A DNA stretch of 64,000 nucleotides from Dehalococcoidia bacterium (GCA_035574915.1 DATLYJ010000078.1:6460-70459), one strand, 5' to 3'; shown: positions 5,328 through 30,934, numbered from the stretch's first letter. Notes: generated by a model from the sequence alone, not told the origin. Made by a program: numbers and translations.

Positions 5328-6257
5328 TCACCACCAGAGGACGTCGTCGAGCGCGTCCTCGTCCGGGACCGGCGCCTCCGGGCGGAAAGCAGGAGTGCCC
5401 AGGTACTTCCACCCGCTATCGGCGAAGACGACGACGATGTTGCCGCGCTCCATGCGCTGCGCCCACTTGAGGGCCGCGTGCATCACGGCGCCGGACGAGA
5501 GCCCGACGAACAACCCTTCGCGCATCAGCACTTCCCGCGCCGCGCGGAAGGCGCTGGCGCTGCGCACCAGGATCTTGCCGTCCAGGGCCTTGAGGTCGAG
5601 TATCGGCGGCACGAAGCCATCGTCCAGGCTGCGCAGGCCCTGCAGCTGGTTCCCGGGGTGGGGTTCCGCCGCGATCAGCTGCACCTTTGGGTTCACCTCC
5701 CGCAGGCGGCGACCCACACCCATGATCGTGCCGCCCGTACCGAGTCCGCAGACGAAGGCGTCTACCTGCGGCGTCTCGCGCAGTATCTCGACGGCGGTCG
5801 TCTCATAGTGGGCGCGCGGGTTGTCCTGGTTGCAGAACTGGTCGAGCAGGTAGCAGCCCTCCCTGGCGGCGATTTCGCGCGCGACCTCGAGCGCGCTTTT
5901 GATGCCGAGCGCGGCAGGCACCCACTGGACCTCGGCGCCGTAGGCGTGCAGGGCCTGCACGACATCCGGAAACACCGTCTCCGGCACGATTGCGCGCACG
6001 CGGTGCCCGAGCCGCCGCCCTAGCATGGCGAGGGAGATGCCGGTGTTGCCCGTCGTCGCCTCGATGATGTCCTGCCCCGGCTTCAGGTCACCGCGTTCCC
6101 GCGCCCTGGCGAGCATGTAGGCGACGATGCGGTCCTTGATCGAGCCCGTCGGGTTCTGGCCTTCGAGCTTCGCGAAGACGCGCACGCCGGGCTTCGGCTC
6201 GCAGTTCTTGAGCTCGACGAGCGGCGTGTTACCGACGAGGTCCAGCACGGAGTCCAT
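5328..6257 (-). CDS. cysK: cysteine synthase (PLP-dependent, CysK/CysM type)
   Basis: PLP-lysine motif NPTGSIKDR and a glycine-rich loop GTGGT; 309 aa. Confidence 0.88.
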   Translation of the reverse strand: MDSVLDLVGNTPLVELKNCEPKPGVRVFAKLEGQNPTGSIKDRIVAYMLARARERGDLKPGQDIIEATTGNTGISLAMLGRRLGHRVRAIVPETVFPDVVQALHAYGAEVQWVPAALGIKSALEVAREIAAREGCYLLDQFCNQDNPRAHYETTAVEILRETPQVDAFVCGLGTGGTIMGVGRRLREVNPKVQLIAAEPHPGNQLQGLRSLDDGFVPPILDLKALDGKILVRSASAFRAAREVLMREGLFVGLSSGAVMHAALKWAQRMERGNIVVVFADSGWKYLGTPAFRPEAPVPDEDALDDVLWW

Positions 6258-6372: not shown

Positions 6373-7449
6373 TCAGGCGCGATTGGCCCTTGCTCGGAAC
6401 CGCAAGAGCGCGAGAGCGGTTATCGTAGCCGCCGTAGCAGCGACGACGCCTGCGACGATGACCGCAGCGCCGTTGTCGCGGTCCGCAGCCGTGTCCGTTG
6501 CCGGCGGCGACAACGCCGACAGGTCGGTAGACGGCGCGGCCGCACGCGCTTCAGCCGTCCGCAGCGCATCCTCGAAGCGGCGATCGAACTCCGGTGTCGA
6601 TGCCCAGACGCGTGGCAGGGTCCCGGCGCGGCCGCTCCCCATCCCCTCCCAGATCCGGCCGCCTCGTTCTGCCGTCGGCGGCGCATAGTACATGAACGCC
6701 GGCGCGTGCCAGCTCCCCATCGAGGTGGGCGCGCTCACGTTGAGGCCGTAAGCGAAGGTGGCGCCGTCGATCAGGGCGTCCTCCAGCGGCGGACTCCCGA
6801 TCGCGGCCGCGAACTCCTCCAGCGGGAACTCGCCCGGATTCAGACGGCGCGCGGGAGCGCCGTCGGGGCCGATGCGCGGATCGAGTCCGCGTCGGTAGAC
6901 CGCGAGGGGGATGTTGAGTGACACGGGCGCAACGACAAGCTCCGCGAACGTCCCGGAGAAGACGTCCCACCAAGCCAGATCGAAGCCGCGACCATTAAGC
7001 GAGGCCATTACGACGCCCTTCGGCAGGACATCGACATTCGAGCGGGCGGCGTCCAGCGCCTTCTTGACGCCCGACCAACGTTCCGCGCCCTGCCAGATGG
7101 TGTCGTCGAGCTGGAGCCACGCGCCCGAGGCCGGGTTATGCACGAGCCGTGTCGCCGGATAGAGGTAGGCCAGCGGTTCGCCGCTGGCTGCCTCCGCCGC
7201 TGCCGCGAAAGGCCATGTGTCGTACAGCAGATAGGCCACGCCAGGCCACGAATCGGGCGGAGCCACCTCGAGGACATGCGGCCCCGGCATCTCCAGGTAG
7301 TCGTCCGTGTAGAAGTGCAGGGCGTGGTCGCCAAGATCGCCGCCGGTGAGGATGTAGCCGGGCGTCTTCGCCCAGACCTGCTCGGCCGGGGCGCACAAGG
7401 CTGCTACGGCGATGAGGAAGCTCCCGACTAGGGCGAGCCTGGTGTTCAT
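6373..7449 (-). CDS. secreted hypothetical protein with signal peptide and a C-terminal hydrophobic anchor plus basic tail
   Basis: Likely start MNTRLALVGSFLIAVAALCAPA (signal peptide). C-terminus AAVIVAGVVAATAATITALALL-RFRARANRA. Only 2 nt separate it from the upstream LuxR/PD40 gene. Confidence 0.5.
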   Translation of the reverse strand: MNTRLALVGSFLIAVAALCAPAEQVWAKTPGYILTGGDLGDHALHFYTDDYLEMPGPHVLEVAPPDSWPGVAYLLYDTWPFAAAAEAASGEPLAYLYPATRLVHNPASGAWLQLDDTIWQGAERWSGVKKALDAARSNVDVLPKGVVMASLNGRGFDLAWWDVFSGTFAELVVAPVSLNIPLAVYRRGLDPRIGPDGAPARRLNPGEFPLEEFAAAIGSPPLEDALIDGATFAYGLNVSAPTSMGSWHAPAFMYYAPPTAERGGRIWEGMGSGRAGTLPRVWASTPEFDRRFEDALRTAEARAAAPSTDLSALSPPATDTAADRDNGAAVIVAGVVAATAATITALALLRFRARANRA

Positions 7450-7451
7450 CG

Positions 7452-8834
7452 TCACTTGCCTCCGGGCGAGATCACGGCCTTCGCGCTGTCCTCCGTCCAG
7501 TCGCACTGGCCGCCCTGGAGGCCGGTGATTTGCTCCAGCACCACGGCGCCGGACTCGAGGTCGACGACCCGCTGGCCATAGGGCCGGTCGGCGACACGGC
7601 CCGTGACGCCCTGGTACCAGTAGAGGCCGTAGCGCCCGTTGGGCGAAGTGCAGAGCAGGCCCTGCGGGTCCGGCCCGGGGATACGCGACCCATCGCGAAG
7701 GTCGACCAGCGTACTAGGTTGGAAGGGTATCTCCGTACCGGTAAGCAGGACGCGGTCGGGGCCGGCCCAGCGCAACGGCGACCAGCGGACCGGAGGCTCG
7801 ATGCGGTAAAGCACGGCGCCGGTGACGGCGTCGAGCACTACGACGGCGCGCGGCTCGTCGGACACGCGGGCGCCTTCGACCGTTCGGGTCGCGGTAGCGA
7901 CGATGAGGCGCCGGCCGTCCGGCGAGAACTCGAGCTGCTGCAGCCAAGCCCCTCCTTCCTCCTGCCATACGAGGCTTCGCCCGGAGCCGTCGAGGCCGAT
8001 CACCTCCACGCGCAGGCTGCCGTCGCGGACGTCGCCGACGGCGATGCGGCCGGCGCTGGCGCTCACATCGACCATGCGCGTCGAAGTAGCGCGCGGGAGG
8101 ACCGGCGGCGGGCCGAGGTCGAGCAGCAGGCGCTTCTCGCCCGACGCCGGGTCCCACTCCCACAGCGCCTGGTTGCTCTCGACTGCGAGCGCCTTGCCCG
8201 CCGACTGGTCGATGTACAGGGCGCCCTGAGGCCTCGTGCCGAGGGCGTCGGCGACCAGCGCGCCGGTGGGATCGACGAGCACCATCTTGGAGCCCGCGTT
8301 CGAAAGGAGGCGGCCCGGCCCCAGCCATTGCATCAGGGCCCCGAAGGGCTGCATTTCGGTGGCCGTGGCAGCTGCGAGGTCGAAGACCCAGGACAGCGAC
8401 GGCCGCGGCGTCGGGGAGGGCACGGCGGTCGACAGTGGCGTCGAAGCCAGCGCGCCCGGCGCCGGCTGGCTGGAGGCTCCATCAAGCCCGTCGCGGCTGA
8501 AGAGAGGACTCGACAGCAGCAGCCACACTCCGACGACGGCCGCCGGGGCGAGGAGCGCAGCGCGGGCGAGCAGGCCAGCGAGCGGCCAGAGGCCGCGCCG
8601 CGCCTCGACGCGCTCACGCTGTTCACGCCACCAAGCGGCGAGGGCGTGGCGGTCGTCGAGGCCGGTCTCGCCCATGAGTTGGCTGACGTGCCACTTCGCG
8701 CCGTCTTGCGAAATGCCCAGCTCGCCGGCGATCTCGGCGTTCGACTTGCCCTCGAGCAGGGCATCGAGCACGCGCTCCTGCTGCGGCGTCGGCCGCCAGC
8801 GTCTCAACCAGTGAAAGCCCTCGCGCTGCCTCAC
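7452..8834 (-). CDS. membrane-anchored LuxR-family HTH regulator with extracytoplasmic PD40/TolB-like beta-propeller domain
   Basis: N-terminal GerE/LuxR HTH (QQERVLDALLEGKSNAEIAGELGISQDGAKWHVSQL), then a hydrophobic TM segment (LLAPAAVVGVWLLLSSP), then about 330 aa with a PD40-like repeat (EFSPDGRRLIV). GTG start. Confidence 0.7.
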   Translation of the reverse strand: MRQREGFHWLRRWRPTPQQERVLDALLEGKSNAEIAGELGISQDGAKWHVSQLMGETGLDDRHALAAWWREQRERVEARRGLWPLAGLLARAALLAPAAVVGVWLLLSSPLFSRDGLDGASSQPAPGALASTPLSTAVPSPTPRPSLSWVFDLAAATATEMQPFGALMQWLGPGRLLSNAGSKMVLVDPTGALVADALGTRPQGALYIDQSAGKALAVESNQALWEWDPASGEKRLLLDLGPPPVLPRATSTRMVDVSASAGRIAVGDVRDGSLRVEVIGLDGSGRSLVWQEEGGAWLQQLEFSPDGRRLIVATATRTVEGARVSDEPRAVVVLDAVTGAVLYRIEPPVRWSPLRWAGPDRVLLTGTEIPFQPSTLVDLRDGSRIPGPDPQGLLCTSPNGRYGLYWYQGVTGRVADRPYGQRVVDLESGAVVLEQITGLQGGQCDWTEDSAKAVISPGGK

Positions 8835-8913
8835 GCCGCCCCGCTACCCGCCACCGGAACCTGGAACCTGAGGACCTGTGGACCTCCGAACATCCGACCC
8901 TCCAGCCGGGAGC

Positions 8914-10179
8914 CTACTTACCGAGGCCGCCGATGCCCCGTGGCGGCCCCTCGGCCAGCTTCAGCGCCGTGGCTTCGTCGGTGCCCCAGGAAGCGGGGGT
9001 CATCTTCAGCGCCGTAACCGGCCAACTGTATCCGTCGTCGACGCGGATCGCCGCCACGCCGAGGTCGTGCGGCTCGCGCTTGGCCACGACGAAGCGGCCG
9101 CCCGGGGACCAGAAAACGAGGCAGCCGTCGCCGAGGAAGCGCAACTCCTTCGACGAGAGCGACTCGAGCAAGTAGAGGTTGTGCTCCTTGCGGTTGAGGC
9201 TGTAAGTCGAGAGCACCATCTGCGAGCCGTCCGGCGACCACTTCATCTCCCCCGCGTACCCCTCCCGCAGATAGTACGTCAGCGGTTCGCCCGAGCCGTC
9301 CGAGAGCGCGATGTGCATCACAAAGGGCCACGCGACGGGACTGAAGGCGATGCGGCTTCCGTCCGGCGACCACGAGATCGCCAGGCTGCCCGGCGCCCGT
9401 TGCCCGGGCGGCGACGACAGCAGCCGCCCGGCGTTCGCGACCAGCTGGACAACGCCTGCCCCGTCCACCGTAAGGAGCTGCCAGCCGAGCGCGTCGTCCT
9501 GGGCGAACGCGAGCCGGCGTCCGTCGGGTGACGGCACGAAGCCGGTTAACACGGACGCGACCTTATAGATGCCGCGGACGCTGCCGTCGCGGGCGAGCCA
9601 GAGGAGCGGCGTATCCGTGGCGGCATCGAGTGTGGCGAAGACAAGGCCGCCGTCGGAGGTCCAGGCGAACGCCGTGGCTCCCGCGCCCAGCGTGGTCACG
9701 GATCGAGTGGACGGCTCGACCAACATGATGCCGCCGTCATCGTCGAGTGCGGCAAGGACTTCGCCGACGGGCGACCAGGCGGCGTCTCTTAACCCGGCGG
9801 CGAGCTCGACCGGTTGCGGCGTCTGACCTTCGGCCGGCAGCGTGGCGTCCCAGAACAAGAGCTGGCAGGGCGTGTTCCCGAGGCAGTGCCGGAAGGCCTG
9901 CCAGCGTCCGCTCGCAGAGGTGGCCGGGCGATAGGTGTTCTCCTGGGCCCTGCCCAGTTCGGCGCCGTCTGGCGTGAATCGGTACAGGAGGTTCGATGAT
10001 CTCAGGACGATAACACCGTCCGCTGAGGGGTCGGGCACCACCTCATCGGGTTCGATGACCGTTACAGCAGCGGGCGCCGCGGGGTCGGGAGCGTCTCGGC
10101 GCACCGCGACATACACGCTCGCCAGGATGGCTGCGAGCGATACCAGGCTGCTGGCAAGCAGGAAGACTCTCCAGCGCAT
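8914..10179 (-). CDS. membrane-anchored PD40/TolB-like beta-propeller protein
   Basis: N-terminal TM (VFLLASSLVSLAAILASVYVAV); repeats SWSPDGSRIAF and KWSPDGSQMV; strong RBS AAAGAGGAGGG upstream. Confidence 0.7.
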   Translation of the reverse strand: MRWRVFLLASSLVSLAAILASVYVAVRRDAPDPAAPAAVTVIEPDEVVPDPSADGVIVLRSSNLLYRFTPDGAELGRAQENTYRPATSASGRWQAFRHCLGNTPCQLLFWDATLPAEGQTPQPVELAAGLRDAAWSPVGEVLAALDDDGGIMLVEPSTRSVTTLGAGATAFAWTSDGGLVFATLDAATDTPLLWLARDGSVRGIYKVASVLTGFVPSPDGRRLAFAQDDALGWQLLTVDGAGVVQLVANAGRLLSSPPGQRAPGSLAISWSPDGSRIAFSPVAWPFVMHIALSDGSGEPLTYYLREGYAGEMKWSPDGSQMVLSTYSLNRKEHNLYLLESLSSKELRFLGDGCLVFWSPGGRFVVAKREPHDLGVAAIRVDDGYSWPVTALKMTPASWGTDEATALKLAEGPPRGIGGLGK

Positions 10180-10332
10180 GACGGCCCTCCTCTTTAACGA
10201 CGTATCGTCGTGACGGCCATTATCACAGCGCCACCGGAAATGTCACTACCCTCGGGCCGGCTGGTCTGCTGGCCGGCTGGCCGCCCAGCGCCCGCCGTTG
10301 CCTCGCTGTAGGCGCCCTTCGGAAAGGGCGCG

Positions 10333-11412
10333 TCAGACGCCGCCCGGCGGTGTCACCGACGGCGACGCGGGCCGGGACGCCAGCCAGGCTTCTACCTTGT
10401 CGAGCGGTACCTGCCAGTTCATGCGCGACAGGTAGGGCTTGAAGCCAAGCTCGTTGTTGATGCGGAGCATCGGGGCGTTGGACTGGGCGTTGCCCGTCCG
10501 GATGAAGCGGACCAGGGGCCGCTCGCGCAGGACCTTGTCGAGCATCGATGCCTTCAGCCACTTGCCCAGGCCGCGGTTGCGGAACTCGGGGAAGACGCCG
10601 GTGTCGCCCTGGTTGAGCTCGTAGGGCAGACCGGGCCGGTAGAGGACCTCGGTATAGCCGGCCAGGCGGCCGCTCTCTCGGTGGCGGACGTACATCGTCC
10701 AGCGCTCCCAGTTGGCGGCCCGCTCGTACGCCTCGAGTTCGCGCAGGCGCTCCGGCGTCATCGGCGAGTCCTCCATGGCGAGGTCGTCGCGTGGGGCGGT
10801 GTTCATCACCTCCATCAGGGCAACGATGGCTTCGAGCTGGTCCTCCGGCATGGCGCCTTCGACCAGCACCATCTCGAACTCCCTCTCGAGCGAGGAACCG
10901 AGCGCGAGCCAGTCCGCCAGCGCCTTCCAGTTGACCTCGTCGATGTTGAGCTGGTTGGTGTACACCGCCTGCGCGGGCGTCGCGCCCAGGGCCCGCATGA
11001 AGGCTTCGCCGCCGGGCGCGCGTGAGGTGGTCGAACCGAAGAGCATGGTCCGGCCGTCCGCCTTCGAGGCGTCGACGACCAGGCGCAGCAGGGCCGTGCC
11101 GAGCCCTCTGCGCCGCCAGGCGGGATCGACGCTGATGTACGCCCAGGCGGGCGTGGCGGTTGTACGGCGTGCGCTGCAGCGAGACGCCGCCGCTCGCCAC
11201 GATCGCGCCCTCTCGCCACACGAACCACGTGCGCTGGTCTACGTAGGAGGGCAACTCGCGGTAGTTGAGCTTCGTCTCCTCGAGGGGCGTCGGAGGGTCG
11301 TCGGGCCAGGACTCCGCTGCCGTGAGGTTGTCGAACGCGTTGATCGCGACGAAGTCGGCGTCAGTGGCGGCGCCCCGGTCGAATGGTCGGATGTCGAAGC
11401 CTGGGCCGGACA
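10333..11412 (-). pseudogene. GNAT-family N-acetyltransferase, apparently frameshifted near 11155-11175 (or sequencing error)
   Basis: C-terminal part (frame of ORF 10333..11046) continues upstream as ...PAWAYISVDPAWRRRGLGTALLRLVV (GNAT acetyl-CoA motif). A plausible N-terminal part (MSGPGFDIRPFDRGAATDADFVAINAFDN...WFVWREGAIVASGGVSLQRTPYN) lies in a different frame starting at 11412. The two frames join only with a 1-nt indel. Confidence 0.5.
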
Positions 11413-11662
11413 TGAGGCGCCTCGTGCCGAGATGTAACGAGAAGTGTAGCGGAAAGGACAAGCGACGAGGGTCGCGTAACCCGCGGCCGACTTGCCCGCC
11501 TCCGTCGGAGCCTACTCTGCACGACGGGACCGCAGGCGCAGCCGCCTCTAGCGAGAGTCGCATCTTCGGGCGCCGCCCGCTTCCCGCTCCGCTCTTCCTT
11601 GTCCCCTGTTCCGTGTTCTCTGATACTTCGACTCACGACACACCCGCTTAGGAGCACCGACC

Positions 11663-25696: not shown

Positions 25697-26725
25697 ATGT
25701 CAGAGTTCTTGCACACTCACGTCCGTCCCTTCGAGGTCCGGCCGGGGCAGACACCTTCGCAGCTCATGCACGGGCTGCACGGCACTTCCTTCCAGGCCCG
25801 CAACCTCGGCACCGCCACGCGCATCTGGAAGCGCATGATGGAGGACGAGATCACCATCTTCCTCGGCATCGCCGGGGCGATGGTCCCCGCCGGCATGCGC
25901 AACGTGATCCGGTTCCTCATCGAGAACCGGATGGTCGACGTCATCGTGAGCACGGGCGCGAACATGTTCCACGATGTCTACGAGACTCTCGGCAAGCCTC
26001 ACTGGCAGACGGTGCCGGGAGGGCACGACATTGACCTCGGCAAGCACCGCATCAACCGCTTCTACGACGTCCTCGCGCCGGAGAGCGACTTCGCCGACGC
26101 CGAAGAGTTCGTCGTCGCCTTCGCGCAGACGCTGGAGGAGAACAAGCCGATCTCTACGCGCGAGTACTTCCGCCGTCTGGGCGAGGCCCTGATCCCGATG
26201 GCGAGCGAGGACGGCATCCTGACTGCCGCGGCAAAGCACGGCGTGCCGATCTACAGCCCTGCCCTCGGCGACAGCGTCCACGGCCTCGCCATCGCCACCG
26301 GGCGCGTGCGCAGCGGCCACCGCCTGGTGTTCGACATCATCGGCGACGTGCTCGAGACGTCGCACCTGGCGCTGACGGCGAAGGGTACGGGCGTGATTTA
26401 CATCGGCGGCGGGACGCCGAAGAACTTCATCCAGCAGGCAGAGGTGGCGGCCTACATCTACGCCCGCGAGCTTCCCGGCCACAAGTACGGCATCCAGGTG
26501 ACGATGGACCAGCCACAATGGGGCGGGCTCTCCGGCTGCACCTTCGAAGAAGCCCAGTCCTGGCGCAAGATCGCCCCGGATGCCGACTTCGTGACCGTGA
26601 ACGTCGAGGCCTCCGTCGCGGTGCCGCTGATCGTGAGCGCGCTGGCGGACGAACTGGGTGAGAAGCTGCGCGACCGCAAGCTCCCCGAGCTGGACTTTGG
26701 CAGCAGCACCCGCGGCGAACGGTAG
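25697..26725 (+). CDS. deoxyhypusine synthase-like protein (DHS family; possible homospermidine-synthase-like)
   Basis: 342 aa with DHS-family motifs (IFLGIAGAMVPAGMR, STGANMFHD, YIGGGTPKNF) and an NAD-binding fold. Confidence 0.8.
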   Translation: MSEFLHTHVRPFEVRPGQTPSQLMHGLHGTSFQARNLGTATRIWKRMMEDEITIFLGIAGAMVPAGMRNVIRFLIENRMVDVIVSTGANMFHDVYETLGKPHWQTVPGGHDIDLGKHRINRFYDVLAPESDFADAEEFVVAFAQTLEENKPISTREYFRRLGEALIPMASEDGILTAAAKHGVPIYSPALGDSVHGLAIATGRVRSGHRLVFDIIGDVLETSHLALTAKGTGVIYIGGGTPKNFIQQAEVAAYIYARELPGHKYGIQVTMDQPQWGGLSGCTFEEAQSWRKIAPDADFVTVNVEASVAVPLIVSALADELGEKLRDRKLPELDFGSSTRGER

Positions 26726-26792
26726 ACGTTATTATACTGTTGGCCGTAAAAGTATAGTAACTGCGAGAACTAATAAAGGGAGCTTTGGTAGC

Positions 26793-28001
26793 TTGAACCG
26801 TAAGGCCTTTGCGGCACCAGCGGGTCGTCTAGTCTGGACCCCTGGCGGTTACTGGGCGTTTGTGCCGGAGCGCTTGAGCCGGCAAACTTCGCTGGATCCC
26901 GACGTCATCTATCTCCTTTCGGAGGCTGATCGCCACCTGGGCGAACTTGCGGGAATGGCAAGGGTGCTGCCGAACCCGCAACTGCTGATTGCGCCGCTAA
27001 GCCAGCGCGAGGCCGTGCTGTCCTCCAGAATCGAAGGCACTCAGGCCTCGCTCTCAGACCTCGCTGTATTCGAAGCTGCCGGCCGCGCGATCCCGGGTCT
27101 GAGCTCGGACGTGGTGGAGGTGCTGAACTACAGGCGTGCAATGTCCTTCGGCCTGGAGCGTCTCGCGGAACTCCCACTTAGCCTGCGGCTCGTGAGAGAG
27201 CTGCATGCCCATCTGATGAGCGGCGTACGTGGACAGGAAAAGGCGCCGGGAGAGTTCCGGAGCTCACAGAATTGGATCGGGTCGCCCGGCAGCAGTCTGG
27301 AAGAAGCCACCTATGTACCGCCACCACACACGGAGATGCATGACTGCCTGGCTGACTGGGAGCGCTTCCTGCACGAGGAGACCGTTACTCCGCCGCTCAT
27401 TCGTTGTGCCCAGATGCACTATCAATTTGAAGCAATACACCCGTTCCTGGATGGAAACGGTAGAGTGGGCCGGCTGCTGATAACACTCTTCCTGTGCACC
27501 CTCGGCAGGCTCCCGAGCCCCGCCCTCTACCTCAGCCCGTACTTCGAGCGTCACCGCACCGAGTACTACGACCACCTGCAAGCAGTAAGCGAGCGCAGCG
27601 AGTGGCAGAACTGGTTCAGATTCTTCGCCAGGGGCGTCATAATACAGTCCCGTGACGCCCTTGCCCGCTTCGACCGATTACTCAAGCTCTACGAGGACTC
27701 GCGTCGCCAGTTGCTATCGTTTAGGGCCGCACCCTCGGTGCTTCGGTTACTGGAAGCTCTCTTCACCAGTCCCGCGGTTACCGTAGCATCCGCGGCTGCC
27801 ACGTTGGGCGTGACGCCGGTAAGCGCCACTCACGCCATCGACACCCTTATCGAGCGTGGGATCCTTCAGGAGATAACTGGGCGCCGAAGGGATCGCGTGT
27901 TCTTGGCGCGGACCATACTGCGAGCCATTGAAGATCCGACCGAGGTCGAACGAGAAGACGCTAATGGGCCTACGCTATTTAAGCCAGGAGCCTCCCCCTA
28001 A
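26793..28001 (+). CDS. Fic-family protein (class II: N-terminal inhibitory helix, C-terminal winged HTH)
   Basis: Fic motif HPFLDGNGRVGR; inhibitory motif SSRIEGT (S-x-x-x-E-G); C-terminal wHTH. TTG start with an AAAGGGA RBS. The gene sits in a local low-GC patch. Confidence 0.75.
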   Translation: MNRKAFAAPAGRLVWTPGGYWAFVPERLSRQTSLDPDVIYLLSEADRHLGELAGMARVLPNPQLLIAPLSQREAVLSSRIEGTQASLSDLAVFEAAGRAIPGLSSDVVEVLNYRRAMSFGLERLAELPLSLRLVRELHAHLMSGVRGQEKAPGEFRSSQNWIGSPGSSLEEATYVPPPHTEMHDCLADWERFLHEETVTPPLIRCAQMHYQFEAIHPFLDGNGRVGRLLITLFLCTLGRLPSPALYLSPYFERHRTEYYDHLQAVSERSEWQNWFRFFARGVIIQSRDALARFDRLLKLYEDSRRQLLSFRAAPSVLRLLEALFTSPAVTVASAAATLGVTPVSATHAIDTLIERGILQEITGRRRDRVFLARTILRAIEDPTEVEREDANGPTLFKPGASP

Positions 28002-28315: not shown

Positions 28316-28516
28316 CCTCCCAGGCGAAGTGGCGATGGCCGAGCCAGCGCAATCCGCGCGCGCTCGTGACGGGCGGCAACCCAAGCCAAGCCACGTCTCC
28401 GGCGTTCTCGCACCACGGAGGTAGAAGGCCAGCTTCGCTTCTGGCAGGTGTCTACGCCGACCCCATGGCGCTCCTGACCTGTGGCCCCTTCAGTCGATAA
28501 TCGAATAAGAGAACGG

Positions 28517-29326
28517 ATGTACAGCAAGCCAGCACCTCACCTCGGGGGCCTCTTGCTCCTGGCCGTCTTGCTCTCGCTCGCGTGCGAGGGCACGAGTCCC
28601 GTTAGGACTTCATCGGACACTGGAACGCCTGCCGCTACCTCACCCGCACCGCCAGCGGTTGCGCCGGCACCGACGGCAACGACGACGCCCGGCCGGCAGC
28701 CCGCGCGCGTCCTCAGGGTCGTGGACGGCGACACGATCGACGTGCAGCTCGACGGCGCGACCGTGCGCGTGCGCTACATCGGCATTGACGCGCCCGAGAC
28801 GGTCGACCCCAGACGGCCGGTGGGCTGCTTCGGGGCGGAGGCATCGGCCCGCAACCGGGCGCTGGTCGAGGGCAGGCAGGTCGAGCTGGAGAAGGACGTG
28901 AGCGAGGCGGACAGCTTCGGCAGGCTGCTGCGCTACGTCTACGTCGACGGGGCCATGGTCAACGAGACGCTAGTGCGGGAAGGCTACGCCCAGGTCGCCA
29001 CCTTCCCGCCGGACGTGAAGTACGTGGACCGCTTCCTGGCGGCGCAGAGGGAGGCGCGGGAGGCGAACCGTGGCCTCTGGGGCGCCTGCGTGGCGGCCAC
29101 ACCCACCCTGGCGCCCGGCGGCAGCGCTTGCCCCCAGGGCTGTGCGGTGCCGCCGCGCGGCTGCGTCATCAAGGGCAACATCAGCCAGGGCACGGGCGAA
29201 AAGATCTACCACGTGCCCGGCGGCGAGTTCTACGACCAGACGGTCATCGACCCGGCCCGCGGCGAGCGCTGGTTCTGCACCGAGGCCGAGGCCGTTGCCA
29301 ATGGCTGGCGCAAGAGCCTGCGGTAG
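28517..29326 (+). CDS. thermonuclease (SNase-like) lipoprotein with C-terminal Cys-rich GNIS...GEKIYHVPG domain
   Basis: Signal and lipobox LLSLAC; SNase core (VVDGDTIDV...RYIGIDAPE...GRLLRYVYVDG); C-terminal KGNISQGTGEKIYHVPGGEFYDQT...WFCTEAEAVANGWR. Confidence 0.8.
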   Translation: MYSKPAPHLGGLLLLAVLLSLACEGTSPVRTSSDTGTPAATSPAPPAVAPAPTATTTPGRQPARVLRVVDGDTIDVQLDGATVRVRYIGIDAPETVDPRRPVGCFGAEASARNRALVEGRQVELEKDVSEADSFGRLLRYVYVDGAMVNETLVREGYAQVATFPPDVKYVDRFLAAQREAREANRGLWGACVAATPTLAPGGSACPQGCAVPPRGCVIKGNISQGTGEKIYHVPGGEFYDQTVIDPARGERWFCTEAEAVANGWRKSLR

Positions 29327-29329
29327 CGT

Positions 29330-30934
29330 TCAGCTTCCCTGCCACCAGGCGAAGTAGCGATCCCAGGGGATGTACCCATAGAAGCCAAACCAGAGCGCCG
29401 GGTCTTGAGCGGAGCGCGGCCACGAGAGGTCCGTGACTTTGACGGGAGTGCCGTCAGTGACGGGCAGCAGCCAGAGCGAAGCCACGTCCTCGGCGTTGTC
29501 GATGCGGGCGAAGAGCAGGCAGGAGCCATCGCGCGACCACAGGGGCCGCTCGTCGCGGTAGGCCGGGTCGTCCGTCAGCTGCCGCTTGTTGGCCCCGTCT
29601 GCGTCCATGACCCAGATGCGCCGCTGGCCCGCACCCTGCCTCGCGTCGTCGCCACCGCCGACTGGCCCTATGTCAGGCCCCGCGACGTAGGCCACCTGGC
29701 GCCCATCCGGTGACCACTCGGGCGAGAAGGCAGCGGTGTCGGTGCCCGTGAGAAAGGTCACAGCTCCGCTGGCCGTATCGACGACAGCGATGCGTTTGCG
29801 GGTCCATGTCTCGCGGCCAAACCCCTCTGTGAGGGCGAGTGCAGTCCTGGAGGCGAACTGACCTATCAGTTCGTCGCGGGTCAACGCCACGACGCCGAGC
29901 CTGCGTGGCGCACCACCGCCGACAGAAATGGCGTAAAGGGGCAGGCCATCAGCCGCGATGGACGCAGAGAACTGAGGATTCAATGAAGAGAGGATCGACG
30001 ACCCGTCCGGCGTCCAGCGGAGCACCCCGACCTGCCCGCTCTCGGGCCCGGCATAGGCATCGTTCGCGTACAGCAGCTGCGCATTCGTCCCGTCGGCGTT
30101 CGCCACCCACAGGCTCGATAGGCGGCTATACGGCTCCTGTGAGCGGTTCAACGGTCCGTCAGCCGCGTACGCCAGCTTGGCGCCGTCCGGGCTCCAGTAG
30201 GGGCCTCGGATCGTCGTGCCAGCGGCAGCGCCAGGGAGCAAGGCCCGGATGCTGATGGTGCGAAGCAAGGCGCCGGTCGGCGCCTCAAGCCTGAAGCCGC
30301 CGGCGGGGTCGACGCAGGCGAGCTCGTCGGCGACCGGCGACCAGGCGACGCAGCCCGGTGCGGCGCGCCGGCGGCCGCCGTCCGCTCTGACCACGGTTTC
30401 GCCAGCGAGTAGCCACTCCCCGGACGGCGACCAGCGCGGGTAGGACATCTGCCCGTTGGTCGTGAGACGCACGGGCCTTCCGCCCGGGAGAGACATGACC
30501 CAAAGGTCGCCGTTCCGGATATAGGCGAGCTTGCCGAGACTGCCAGGTTCGCCGGTCGGGCCTGACTCCTGTGGGCCAAGGTCCAGGAGCAGCGCCAGGG
30601 CGAGCAAGAGTGCCGCGCCAACTACAACCAGGGCGCCAGCACCGGCCGCCACCTTCGCCGCCGCGCCGGGCGTTGCCTTCCTGAAGAGCAGAGTCAAGGG
30701 CGCCAGCGCGCCGAGTCGACGAGCCTCTCGCTCTGGCGTCCAGGCGGCGGCTTGTTCCCGGCTCGAAACGCCGAGCTTCGTGATGATCTCTGACACGTGG
30801 TACTTGGCGCCGTCGAGCGTGAGGCCGAGGCGGCGGGCAATCTGCTCATTGGTCAGCCCCTGCCGCAGCAACTCCAGCACTTGCCACTGACGCGGCGTGA
30901 GGATGTCAGGGTGTCTTGGGCGCCCGCGTCTCAT
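29330..30934 (-). CDS. membrane-anchored LuxR-family HTH regulator with PD40/TolB-like beta-propeller domain (paralogue of 7452..8834)
   Basis: N-terminal HTH (LTPRQWQVLELLRQGLTNEQIARRLGLTLDGAKYHVSEI); TM (ALVVVGAALLLALALLL); PD40 repeats (PRWSPSGEWLL, YWSPDGAKLAY, RWTPDGSSIL, EWSPDGRQVAY). Confidence 0.7.
   Translation of the reverse strand: MRRGRPRHPDILTPRQWQVLELLRQGLTNEQIARRLGLTLDGAKYHVSEIITKLGVSSREQAAAWTPEREARRLGALAPLTLLFRKATPGAAAKVAAGAGALVVVGAALLLALALLLDLGPQESGPTGEPGSLGKLAYIRNGDLWVMSLPGGRPVRLTTNGQMSYPRWSPSGEWLLAGETVVRADGGRRRAAPGCVAWSPVADELACVDPAGGFRLEAPTGALLRTISIRALLPGAAAGTTIRGPYWSPDGAKLAYAADGPLNRSQEPYSRLSSLWVANADGTNAQLLYANDAYAGPESGQVGVLRWTPDGSSILSSLNPQFSASIAADGLPLYAISVGGGAPRRLGVVALTRDELIGQFASRTALALTEGFGRETWTRKRIAVVDTASGAVTFLTGTDTAAFSPEWSPDGRQVAYVAGPDIGPVGGGDDARQGAGQRRIWVMDADGANKRQLTDDPAYRDERPLWSRDGSCLLFARIDNAEDVASLWLLPVTDGTPVKVTDLSWPRSAQDPALWFGFYGYIPWDRYFAWWQGS

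Follow-up and report, generated by a model that had tools for sequence, protein, structure and literature searches.

A predicted transmembrane one-component regulator with a LuxR-type head and a beta-propeller ectodomain in a Dehalococcoidia genome

We describe a three-gene locus in a 64,000-nucleotide stretch of DNA from a Dehalococcoidia bacterium (GCA_035574915.1 DATLYJ010000078.1:6460-70459), referred to below as the window, and in particular its middle gene, which encodes a putative membrane-spanning regulator with a LuxR-type helix-turn-helix (HTH) at one end and a beta-propeller at the other. The three genes lie on the minus strand: g1 (8914..10179) encodes a signal-anchored PD40 beta-propeller protein of 421 residues, g2 (7452..8834, GTG start) a protein of 460 residues combining a GerE/LuxR HTH, one transmembrane (TM) helix and a seven-bladed propeller, and g3 (6373..7449) an orphan type I membrane protein of 358 residues. 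An initial annotation had proposed these co-directional genes, and all the open reading frames were confirmed at its coordinates; it was also right on the gap of 2 nt between g2 and g3, but the gap between g1 and g2 is 79 nt (8835..8913) and not 80. The ATG of g1 is preceded by a strong Shine-Dalgarno sequence, AAGAGGAGG, while a GGAGG Shine-Dalgarno lies within the end of g2, and g3 is translationally coupled to g2. The GTG start of g2 is supported by the N-terminus M-R-Q-R-E-G-F/Y-H-W, kept in the orthologues, and by the ATG that the orthologue at locus L003 has in its place. The G+C content is ~67-70 % throughout the window, in the 64 kb of which no Rfam or tRNA features were found. Because there are homologues of conserved length, domain matches and a confident fold, g1, g2 and g3 are true genes and not chance open reading frames of DNA with 69 % G+C.

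The N-terminal part of g2 (residues 16-81; 8592..8789, minus strand) is a four-helix GerE DNA-binding domain, predicted to be cytoplasmic and delineated by Pfam, the structural model and an alignment with LiaR. Residues 16-63 match Pfam GerE (PF00196) with 28.7 bits against a gathering cutoff of 23.5 (E 9.9e-7), which bears out the LuxR-type HTH proposed earlier, and the AlphaFold2 model places the HTH helices at residues 17-27, 32-39, 43-57 and 62-81. The nearest solved relatives of this head are the DNA-binding domains of LiaR, VraR, NarL and DosR, the closest being DNA-bound response-regulator effector domains. In the alignment with LiaR, g2 retains K47, H49, V50, S51, L53, R62 and A66, and 'TV' is replaced by 'GA'; the recognition helix, ISQDGAKWHVSQL, aligns with ITLKTVKTHVSNI of LiaR position for position, with K-x-H-V-S unchanged and K-T-V of LiaR turned into D-G-A. 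By comparison with published NarL-DNA structures, the lysine kept in this helix is presumably the equivalent of K188, which contacts bases in NarL. At the position of NarL V189 the g2 family has an aromatic residue (W/Y/F), and the helix that follows the recognition helix keeps the R..AA.W dimerisation motif. The initial annotation had called the sequence DGAK(W/Y)HVS unusual: it is indeed present, as DGAKWHVS in g2 and as DGAKYHVS in a second family member of the window (29330..30934), but the departure from the canonical helix comes down to KTV becoming DGA plus one aromatic residue. An aberrant recognition helix was rejected, since that of g2 aligns with LiaR at every position, and from these alignments the motif is a good family signature and not the mark of an aberrant HTH. 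Other identities were considered for g2 and discarded. No receiver domain (Response_reg) was matched in g2, whose GerE domain begins at residue 16, so that it is no NarL/FixJ response regulator; the NCBIfam response-regulator models match it over the HTH part only and far below their cutoffs. A fragment of an extracytoplasmic function (ECF) sigma factor was rejected on domain evidence.

Directly after the head comes a single hydrophobic segment, at about residues 83-113 by hydropathy, on which the TM prediction rests; the TM helix itself is placed at residues 83-107 (8514..8588, minus strand) by hydropathy, the model helix and the positive-inside bias of the family. This bias was counted over 67 complete family members, in which the 15 residues flanking the TM helix hold on average 2.66 lysines and arginines on the N side versus 0.79 on the C side, with an excess on the N side in 60 of the 67 and on the C side in a single one. 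Beyond the TM helix the chain continues as a linker of low complexity, rich in S/T/P/A (residues 108-144) and disordered in the model. Exactly two cysteines are present in g2, C395 and C444, both of them in the propeller and kept in each of the 8 orthologues whose sequence reaches them; such a pair would fit, as expected, a disulfide in an oxidising compartment outside the cell. Because the positive-inside bias, the linker and the cysteine pair of the ectodomain agree, we infer that g2 is a single-pass protein with its N-terminus inside and its C-terminus, and hence the propeller, outside the cell. The computed topology is thus the one that the initial annotation had proposed, with the HTH inside.

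The ectodomain (residues 148-456; 7467..8393, minus strand) follows the disordered linker. The AlphaFold2 model, built from 9 orthologues, has a mean predicted local distance difference test (pLDDT) score of 77, mostly 85-95 over residues 148-456, which are all-beta with 28 strands that the model lets us read as seven four-stranded blades. In a Foldseek search of the PDB, this ectodomain retrieved YVTN, WD40, TolB, BamB and DPP-IV propellers with E 1e-8 to 3e-10; the match to the TolB fold (E 1.5e-8) is equalled or surpassed by WD40, YVTN and prolyl-oligopeptidase propellers. No PD40 match was returned by Pfam for g2, and profile-profile comparison (hhalign) of the propellers of g2 and g1 gave 90.9 % with E 1.1e-6 over 141 columns. 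The confident model and the fold search confirm, at the level of prediction, that the g2 ectodomain is a propeller, as first proposed, but the label 'PD40' or 'TolB-like' holds for it only as remote homology. That g2 might be a homologue or orthologue of TolB was rejected on domain evidence.

The two flanking genes encode predicted envelope proteins of different kinds. The g1 protein has one N-terminal hydrophobic segment (residues 3-27) and a Pfam PD40 match (E 3.2e-9, 36.9 bits vs a cutoff of 20.9), in agreement with its earlier description as a TM segment followed by a PD40 propeller; with the TolB model TIGR02800 it scores 16.6 bits vs a cutoff of 343, and its orthologues share three invariant cysteines, C99, C105 and C353. 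The g3 protein starts with a signal-peptide-like hydrophobic segment with VWA|K and ends with a hydrophobic segment (residues ~326-351) and the tail RFRARANRA, so that the signal peptide, the C-terminal anchor and the tail described initially are all seen; about 300 residues of ectodomain lie between the signal peptide and the C-terminal TM segment. Neither Pfam nor NCBIfam (E <= 1 for the latter) gave any match for g3, for which a search of 5.8 billion proteins gave only 3 homologues, of 100, 81 and 61 % identity and with conservation along the entire length; the identical entry at NCBI is hypothetical protein VNN10_07220. With an alignment of 3 sequences, AlphaFold2 gave an uninformative model for g3 (pLDDT 33). 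No sorting motif (LPXTG, PEP-CTERM, GlyGly-CTERM and similar) was seen before the C-terminal TM segment, and with no motif visible and no NCBIfam model at E <= 1, a sortase- or exosortase-sorted protein was rejected.

The DNA upstream of g1 contains a conserved promoter block (10217..10251, minus strand), within which a sigma-70-like promoter with extended -10 element (GTGACA, 16 nt, TG-n-GATAAT) occupies positions 10246..10219; a promoter scan 5' of g1 found one site vs 0.4 expected. The block GGGnAGTGACAyTTCCGGTrGCnyTGTGATAmTG is near-identical in the window and at the orthologous loci L003 and L002, while the flanking DNA does not align and the proteins encoded at the three loci are only 39-53 % identical. 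It is present in a single copy in the window and, among 82 loci, only at these 3; a metagenome-wide scan for it (GTGACANTTCCGGTNGCNNTGTGATA) gave no match, and thus no regulon members or further orthologous loci. An exact-match search of the 64 kb found exactly two copies of the 11-mer TTCCGGTGGCG, both on the minus strand, one before g1 in the promoter spacer (10229..10239) and the other 15 nt upstream of the g2 GTG (8849..8859); where the window has this second copy, L003 has the related TCCAGTGGCG. From its positions, TTCCGGTGGCG may be considered a candidate operator for autoregulation. The same intergenic DNA shows several other features. Three CAGGT(T)CC units in tandem (~8860..8886, minus strand) lie in the spacer of g1 and g2, 5' of the second TTCCGGTGGCG, and this spacer is partly kept in L003 in the form CCTCAGGTCC...GGTCCAGTGGCG...GGGGTGGC-ATG. 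The DNA that separates the -10 element from the g1 Shine-Dalgarno contains a palindrome, ACGACG-ATA-CGTCGT (10197..10211, minus strand), which L003 keeps in part (CGATAGGTCGT) and L002 lacks. Further upstream, right after the stop codon of a GNAT gene, a perfect hairpin of 20 nt, GCGCCCTT-TCCG-AAGGGCGC (10312..10331, minus strand), with no T-run, is probably where the upstream transcription unit ends. The g1 promoter lies downstream of it, and the stretch from g1 to the end of g3 showed no terminator-like sites. The GNAT gene itself seems split over two minus-strand frames, 10223..11563, with a protein-like N-terminal part, and 10333..11046 (237 residues), with the part matched by Pfam, compared with 357 residues for the GNAT of a relative; it may reflect a frameshift, a pseudogene or an assembly error.

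Comparison of gene order gives a first idea of which of these genes belong together. An orthologue of g1 stands directly upstream of an orthologue of g2 at L001/L003 (53 % identity for g1, 44 % for g2) and at L002 (39 % and 35 %), and judging by these sequences, this orthologous group has kept g1 and g2 together as a pair, to which g3 was added recently. The initial annotation had suggested looking at the co-occurrence of the anchored secreted protein; g3 turned out to be confined to the window and the closest relative. Around the other family members, the 117 flanking genes contain 140 Pfam families, none of them in more than 4 genes, and among these genes neither sigma factors nor proteases or transporters show a consistent linkage to the family. 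A PALP (cysteine-synthase-like) gene (5328..6257, minus strand) follows the locus in the window, on the contig of P0002 (the closest relative of g2) and at L001, and does not do so at L002; it may represent shared local synteny or possibly a target gene.

The head of g2 belongs to a much larger family. Among species-representative genomes, the head pattern [IV][ST]xDGAKWH marks 118 loci or more, almost all of them from Chloroflexota. Many genomes have several copies, with 8 or more in the metagenome-assembled genome (MAG) SJ813 and 5 or more in each of two others. The related loci come nearly all from Chloroflexota MAGs, of Dehalococcoidia/Tepidiformaceae, Anaerolineae and Thermoflexus. The 67 complete members have the motif at residues 36-58, a single TM segment from ~80-100 and lengths of 315-730 residues; GerE scores above its gathering threshold in all 69 members tested, with weaker matches to Sigma70_r4 or Sigma70_r4_2 in 14 of them. 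Their ectodomains are mostly without Pfam match, the others being assigned to SH3_3 (8), PD40 (3), BNR (1) and DUF4367 (1). Thus, across Chloroflexota, a near-identical GerE head of ~80 residues with its TM helix is fused to unrelated ectodomains, and the propeller versions are a minority of this modular family. Paralogues of the same genome also combine unrelated ectodomains with nearly identical heads, recognition-helix positions included. Since the first head set was selected on DGAKWH, conservation of that stretch is circular, but positions 50-70, which were not used for selection, are also nearly fixed, with only position 51 split into S (38) and R (23). Position 51 is the one that we take to be equivalent to NarL K192. 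The set retrieved through PD40 shows the same conservation of the head, including four paralogues of one MAG (P0020, P0021, P0026 and P0079). In another observation, loci L008, L011, L018, L031, L032, L040, L041 and L076 of one MAG, and others, share both a nearly identical head and a juxtamembrane motif, YWR..NGL..R. A search with the head profile could not delimit the family, as it gave 433,536 matches at E <= 0.001 and 59,441 at E <= 1e-10, generic GerE included; below the top ranks, the single-stretch matches cover residues 1-71 with ~118-127 bits. The top matches (P0138-P0147) are proteins of 2,800-7,700 residues with 8-26 separate GerE-like stretches, either tandem HTH arrays or gene-calling artefacts. 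A protein-pattern scan of metagenome contigs with a generic LuxR pattern retrieved only ordinary LuxR HTHs and no orthologues.

The second family member of the window (29330..30934, minus strand; 534 residues) consists of an RRGRP leader, a GerE HTH (53.6 bits), a TM helix and a PD40/DPPIV_N-type propeller (PD40, 4.2e-12), and it is not located beside g1- or g3-like genes. It is annotated at NCBI as 'LuxR C-terminal-related transcriptional regulator'. The search with this paralogue gave 675 matches, and at least 39 of the 120 retrieved have the same head together with a PD40 propeller, proteins named 'CsgD family regulator/Tol biopolymer transport system component' in their sources. In the paralogue subfamily P0018-P0117 the leader (M)RRGRP(R/P)(H/Y)(P/D)D-(I/L)LTP is kept before the HTH. 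RGRP is the core of the AT-hook of minor-groove binders, which this basic arm resembles in sequence. Because P0080 combines a zf-HC2 anti-sigma head with the same PD40 propeller, 41 % identical to that of the paralogue, the PD40 module appears to behave as a portable extracytoplasmic sensor. The surroundings of the paralogue deserve mention as well. It stands tail to tail with a secreted staphylococcal-nuclease-like gene (28481..29326, plus strand; SNase, E 2.5e-23), and in P0126, which is related to its propeller, PD40 and SNase are fused in one protein, which suggests a possible link of this propeller type to extracellular nucleases. A Fic/DOC-family gene (26658..28001, plus strand), with Fic_N, Fic and a C-terminal HTH-like region, lies in the stretch of lowest G+C content of the window (0.626 at 26-28 kb vs ~0.68), which may be acquired DNA.

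How g2 compares with known systems was examined through a non-exhaustive literature search, which found no paper on N-terminal GerE-TM-extracytoplasmic proteins or on this Chloroflexota expansion. By its domains g2 meets the definition of transmembrane transcription regulators, a widespread class with a DNA-binding domain and a predicted TM region (PMC10269533), since GerE and one hydrophobic helix, the latter from hydropathy, are found in one polypeptide. The initial annotation knew of no characterised LuxR-family regulator with a propeller sensor; one exists, with the reverse domain order. BguR is a GerE regulator with a periplasmic beta-propeller sensor, characterised genetically, which activates transcription (bioRxiv 10.64898/2026.01.10.698779). 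It shares with g2, known here from sequence and model, a cytoplasmic GerE/LuxR HTH, a single TM segment, a beta-propeller outside and the lack of phosphorelay domains. However, its 940 residues run from a signal peptide through tandem Reg_prop-type propellers, Y_Y_Y, TM segment and linker to a C-terminal GerE, whereas in g2 the GerE comes first, the topology is of type II, the propeller is single and PD40-like, and Y_Y_Y is absent; BguR is also found in polysaccharide utilisation loci, and both phylum and genomic context differ. The BguR family was defined by its authors as a single TM segment with a C-terminal GerE and Y_Y_Y (PF07495) (bioRxiv 10.64898/2026.01.10.698779), and g2 was not retained as a member of it, as its GerE is N-terminal and neither Y_Y_Y nor Reg_prop was matched in g2 or the family members tested.

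In the order of its domains g2 is closer to ToxR/ToxS, TcpP/TcpH, VtrA/VtrC and CadC, in which an N-terminal DNA-binding domain, one TM helix and a C-terminal extracytoplasmic sensor follow each other. The ToxR-type pairs also have a co-transcribed single-pass partner, as predicted at g1-g2, and extracytoplasmic cysteines, and these systems act from the membrane and/or under proteolytic control. Their DNA-binding domain, however, is the OmpR-type winged helix (Trans_reg_C) instead of GerE, and their sensors are small alpha/beta or lipocalin-like folds, from Proteobacteria, instead of a propeller; no Trans_reg_C match was obtained for g2 at E <= 1 and, for lack of a winged helix, g2 was rejected as a ToxR-family member. 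The GerE domain is shared with DadR, CadR and HcdR, LuxR-type regulators of Eggerthella lenta with 10-12 TM segments, for which transcription activation was shown genetically; the DadR type has undergone a lineage expansion, with 83 regulators in one strain that have conserved DNA-binding domains and variable sensors (PMC9734109). Being membrane-integral LuxR/GerE proteins with a large lineage-specific expansion, they recall the g2 family, but they possess a polytopic N-terminal membrane sensor, a C-terminal HTH and no extracytoplasmic globular domain. The single-pass anti-sigma factors with PD40, DUF4367 or SH3 outside (e.g., P0080) have the type II layout and the kind of ectodomain seen in g2, whereas their cytoplasmic zf-HC2 head binds a sigma factor and that of g2 is an HTH with no sigma gene linked. 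Finally, TolB and other PD40 propellers are similar to g2 at the level of the fold, with PD40 repeats in g1 and the paralogue, but g1 and g2 lack the TolB N-terminal domain, and TolB is six-bladed while the g2 model fits seven blades. What is new is therefore the arrangement and the lineage; the principle was known, and GerE+PD40 proteins were already in databases under routine names.

We consider it probable, at roughly 60 %, that g2 is a transmembrane one-component regulator with a partner and autoregulation, its DNA binding, the roles of its partners and its signal being what we infer from the sequence. The core of the initial proposal, a regulator of this kind, thus held up as regards both the GerE identity of the head and the side of the membrane on which the propeller lies. 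In the proposed mechanism, the GerE head would sit in the cytoplasm at ~15-25 residues from the membrane and the propeller would be displayed outside on a flexible S/T/P-rich stalk. Contact of a ligand or a protein with the propeller would alter the oligomeric state or the stability of g2, and this altered state would affect how the GerE head, acting as a dimer, binds promoter DNA. The membrane-anchored g1 would be the likely extracytoplasmic partner, in a role like that of ToxS or TcpH, which g3 may share in the closest relatives, and the operon would probably control its own expression by way of the conserved g1 promoter and the two copies of TTCCGGTGGCG. By analogy, the logic most likely follows that of ToxR, CadC and BguR. 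Action while tethered has precedents in ToxR/ToxS and E. coli CadC, as well as in BguR (bioRxiv 10.64898/2026.01.10.698779) and in DadR, CadR and HcdR (PMC9734109).

Several observations weigh against this proposal. The TM segment of g2 contains an arginine (R92), its topology comes from sequence statistics, and the spacer between HTH and TM is short, helix 4 of the model being near-continuous, at low confidence, with the TM helix, which might hinder DNA binding while tethered. The 11-mer TTCCGGTGGCG was picked post hoc and, with one mismatch, it is only modestly enriched (8 occurrences vs 2.9 expected). The near-identical recognition helices of the paralogues are unexpected for independent sequence-specific regulators. 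As for the three-gene operon of the initial annotation, adjacency, common direction and the 2-nt junction are real, but the unit is not fixed: g1 accompanies g2 in three of five contexts (window, L001/L003 and L002), an oppositely oriented APH gene replaces it beside P0002, which is 84 % identical to g2, the P0008 regulator stands alone, and g3 is found with g2 in two of the five (window and P0002, there too right after the regulator). The wider family has no conserved neighbour, and target genes are thus unreadable from context.

Part of these observations would suit proteolytic release, with g2 and its family as latent transcription factors: a signal received at the ectodomain would set off site-1 and then intramembrane cleavage and so free the GerE head of ~80 residues as a soluble regulator, g1 or g3 shielding the g2 ectodomain from the site-1 protease like ToxS and TcpH. 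The short spacer, with helix 4 predicted to run on into the TM helix, speaks for it, and a protease could plausibly cut the long disordered stalk on the outer side of the membrane. Moreover, the ectodomains of the family overlap those of anti-sigma factors under intramembrane proteolysis (zf-HC2+PD40 in P0080; the DUF4367 and SH3_3 members), near-identical heads of paralogues make sense if the freed head is an interchangeable effector, and cleavage is known to activate Salmonella CadC, while ToxR and TcpP undergo intramembrane proteolysis. Against it, the 117 neighbouring genes include no site-2 or other protease gene, no cleavage motif was identified, and BguR, DadR, ToxR and E. coli CadC work tethered; we regard release as unlikely and yet as a serious variant. 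The same identity of paralogue heads behind unrelated ectodomains, which extends to the NarL base-contact positions, would also be explained if the head were a docking module, for instance a domain like sigma region 4, which captures RNA polymerase, a sigma factor or a different shared partner at the membrane and acts by anti-sigma-like sequestration. The weaker Sigma70_r4 and Sigma70_r4_2 matches in the family point the same way, but GerE is the best and sole match above threshold, the presumed base-contacting lysine is kept, the AT-hook-like arm points to DNA and no sigma-factor gene is linked. The S and R classes at position 51 are, in addition, what would be expected for two DNA specificities, and sequestration seems less likely than release, indeed quite improbable.

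The variable gene neighbourhood would also be accounted for if g1, g2 and g3 were neighbours without shared function, g1 and g3 being ordinary envelope proteins and the promoter block a strong promoter of housekeeping type. The APH gene in the place of g1 and the isolated P0008 agree with this, as do the restriction of g3 to the closest relatives and a family without conserved partner. But the order and orientation of g1-g2 are kept at three loci, down to 35 % identity of g2, the 2-nt junction of g2 and g3 has an internal Shine-Dalgarno, and the promoter block, absent from the other 79 of the 82 loci, is conserved in its spacer and not in the hexamers alone, with the 11-mer of this spacer recurring before g2. 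A coincidental neighbourhood is the least likely of these explanations, and a very doubtful one. Beyond the locus, a tentative and rather improbable proposal concerns the whole family: a so far undescribed signalling system specific to Chloroflexota, in which a nearly invariant cassette of ~80 residues (basic leader, GerE head, juxtamembrane motif and TM helix) would connect dozens of unrelated ectodomains per genome to one shared DNA target or partner, possibly after release of the head.

The locus overturns no principle: the design principle is established and the architecture has been catalogued, whereas the scale of the expansion, the invariance of the head and the promoter element merit specialist attention. 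Membrane-tethered transcription factors are the simplest route from outside the cell to DNA, and few types have been studied; g2 would represent a third membrane layout of LuxR-type regulators beside the 12-TM DadR type and the BguR type. The small conserved head together with the conserved promoter offers a concrete system for studies in vitro, and the head shared among paralogues raises the question of specificity. The family further brings to light a large expansion in Chloroflexota, whose signal transduction has hardly been characterised by experiment. If the shared-cassette proposal were true, this system would be a one-polypeptide substitute for pairs of ECF sigma and anti-sigma factors, and g1-g2(-g3) would serve it as one specialised input, aided by accessory partners of the ectodomain.

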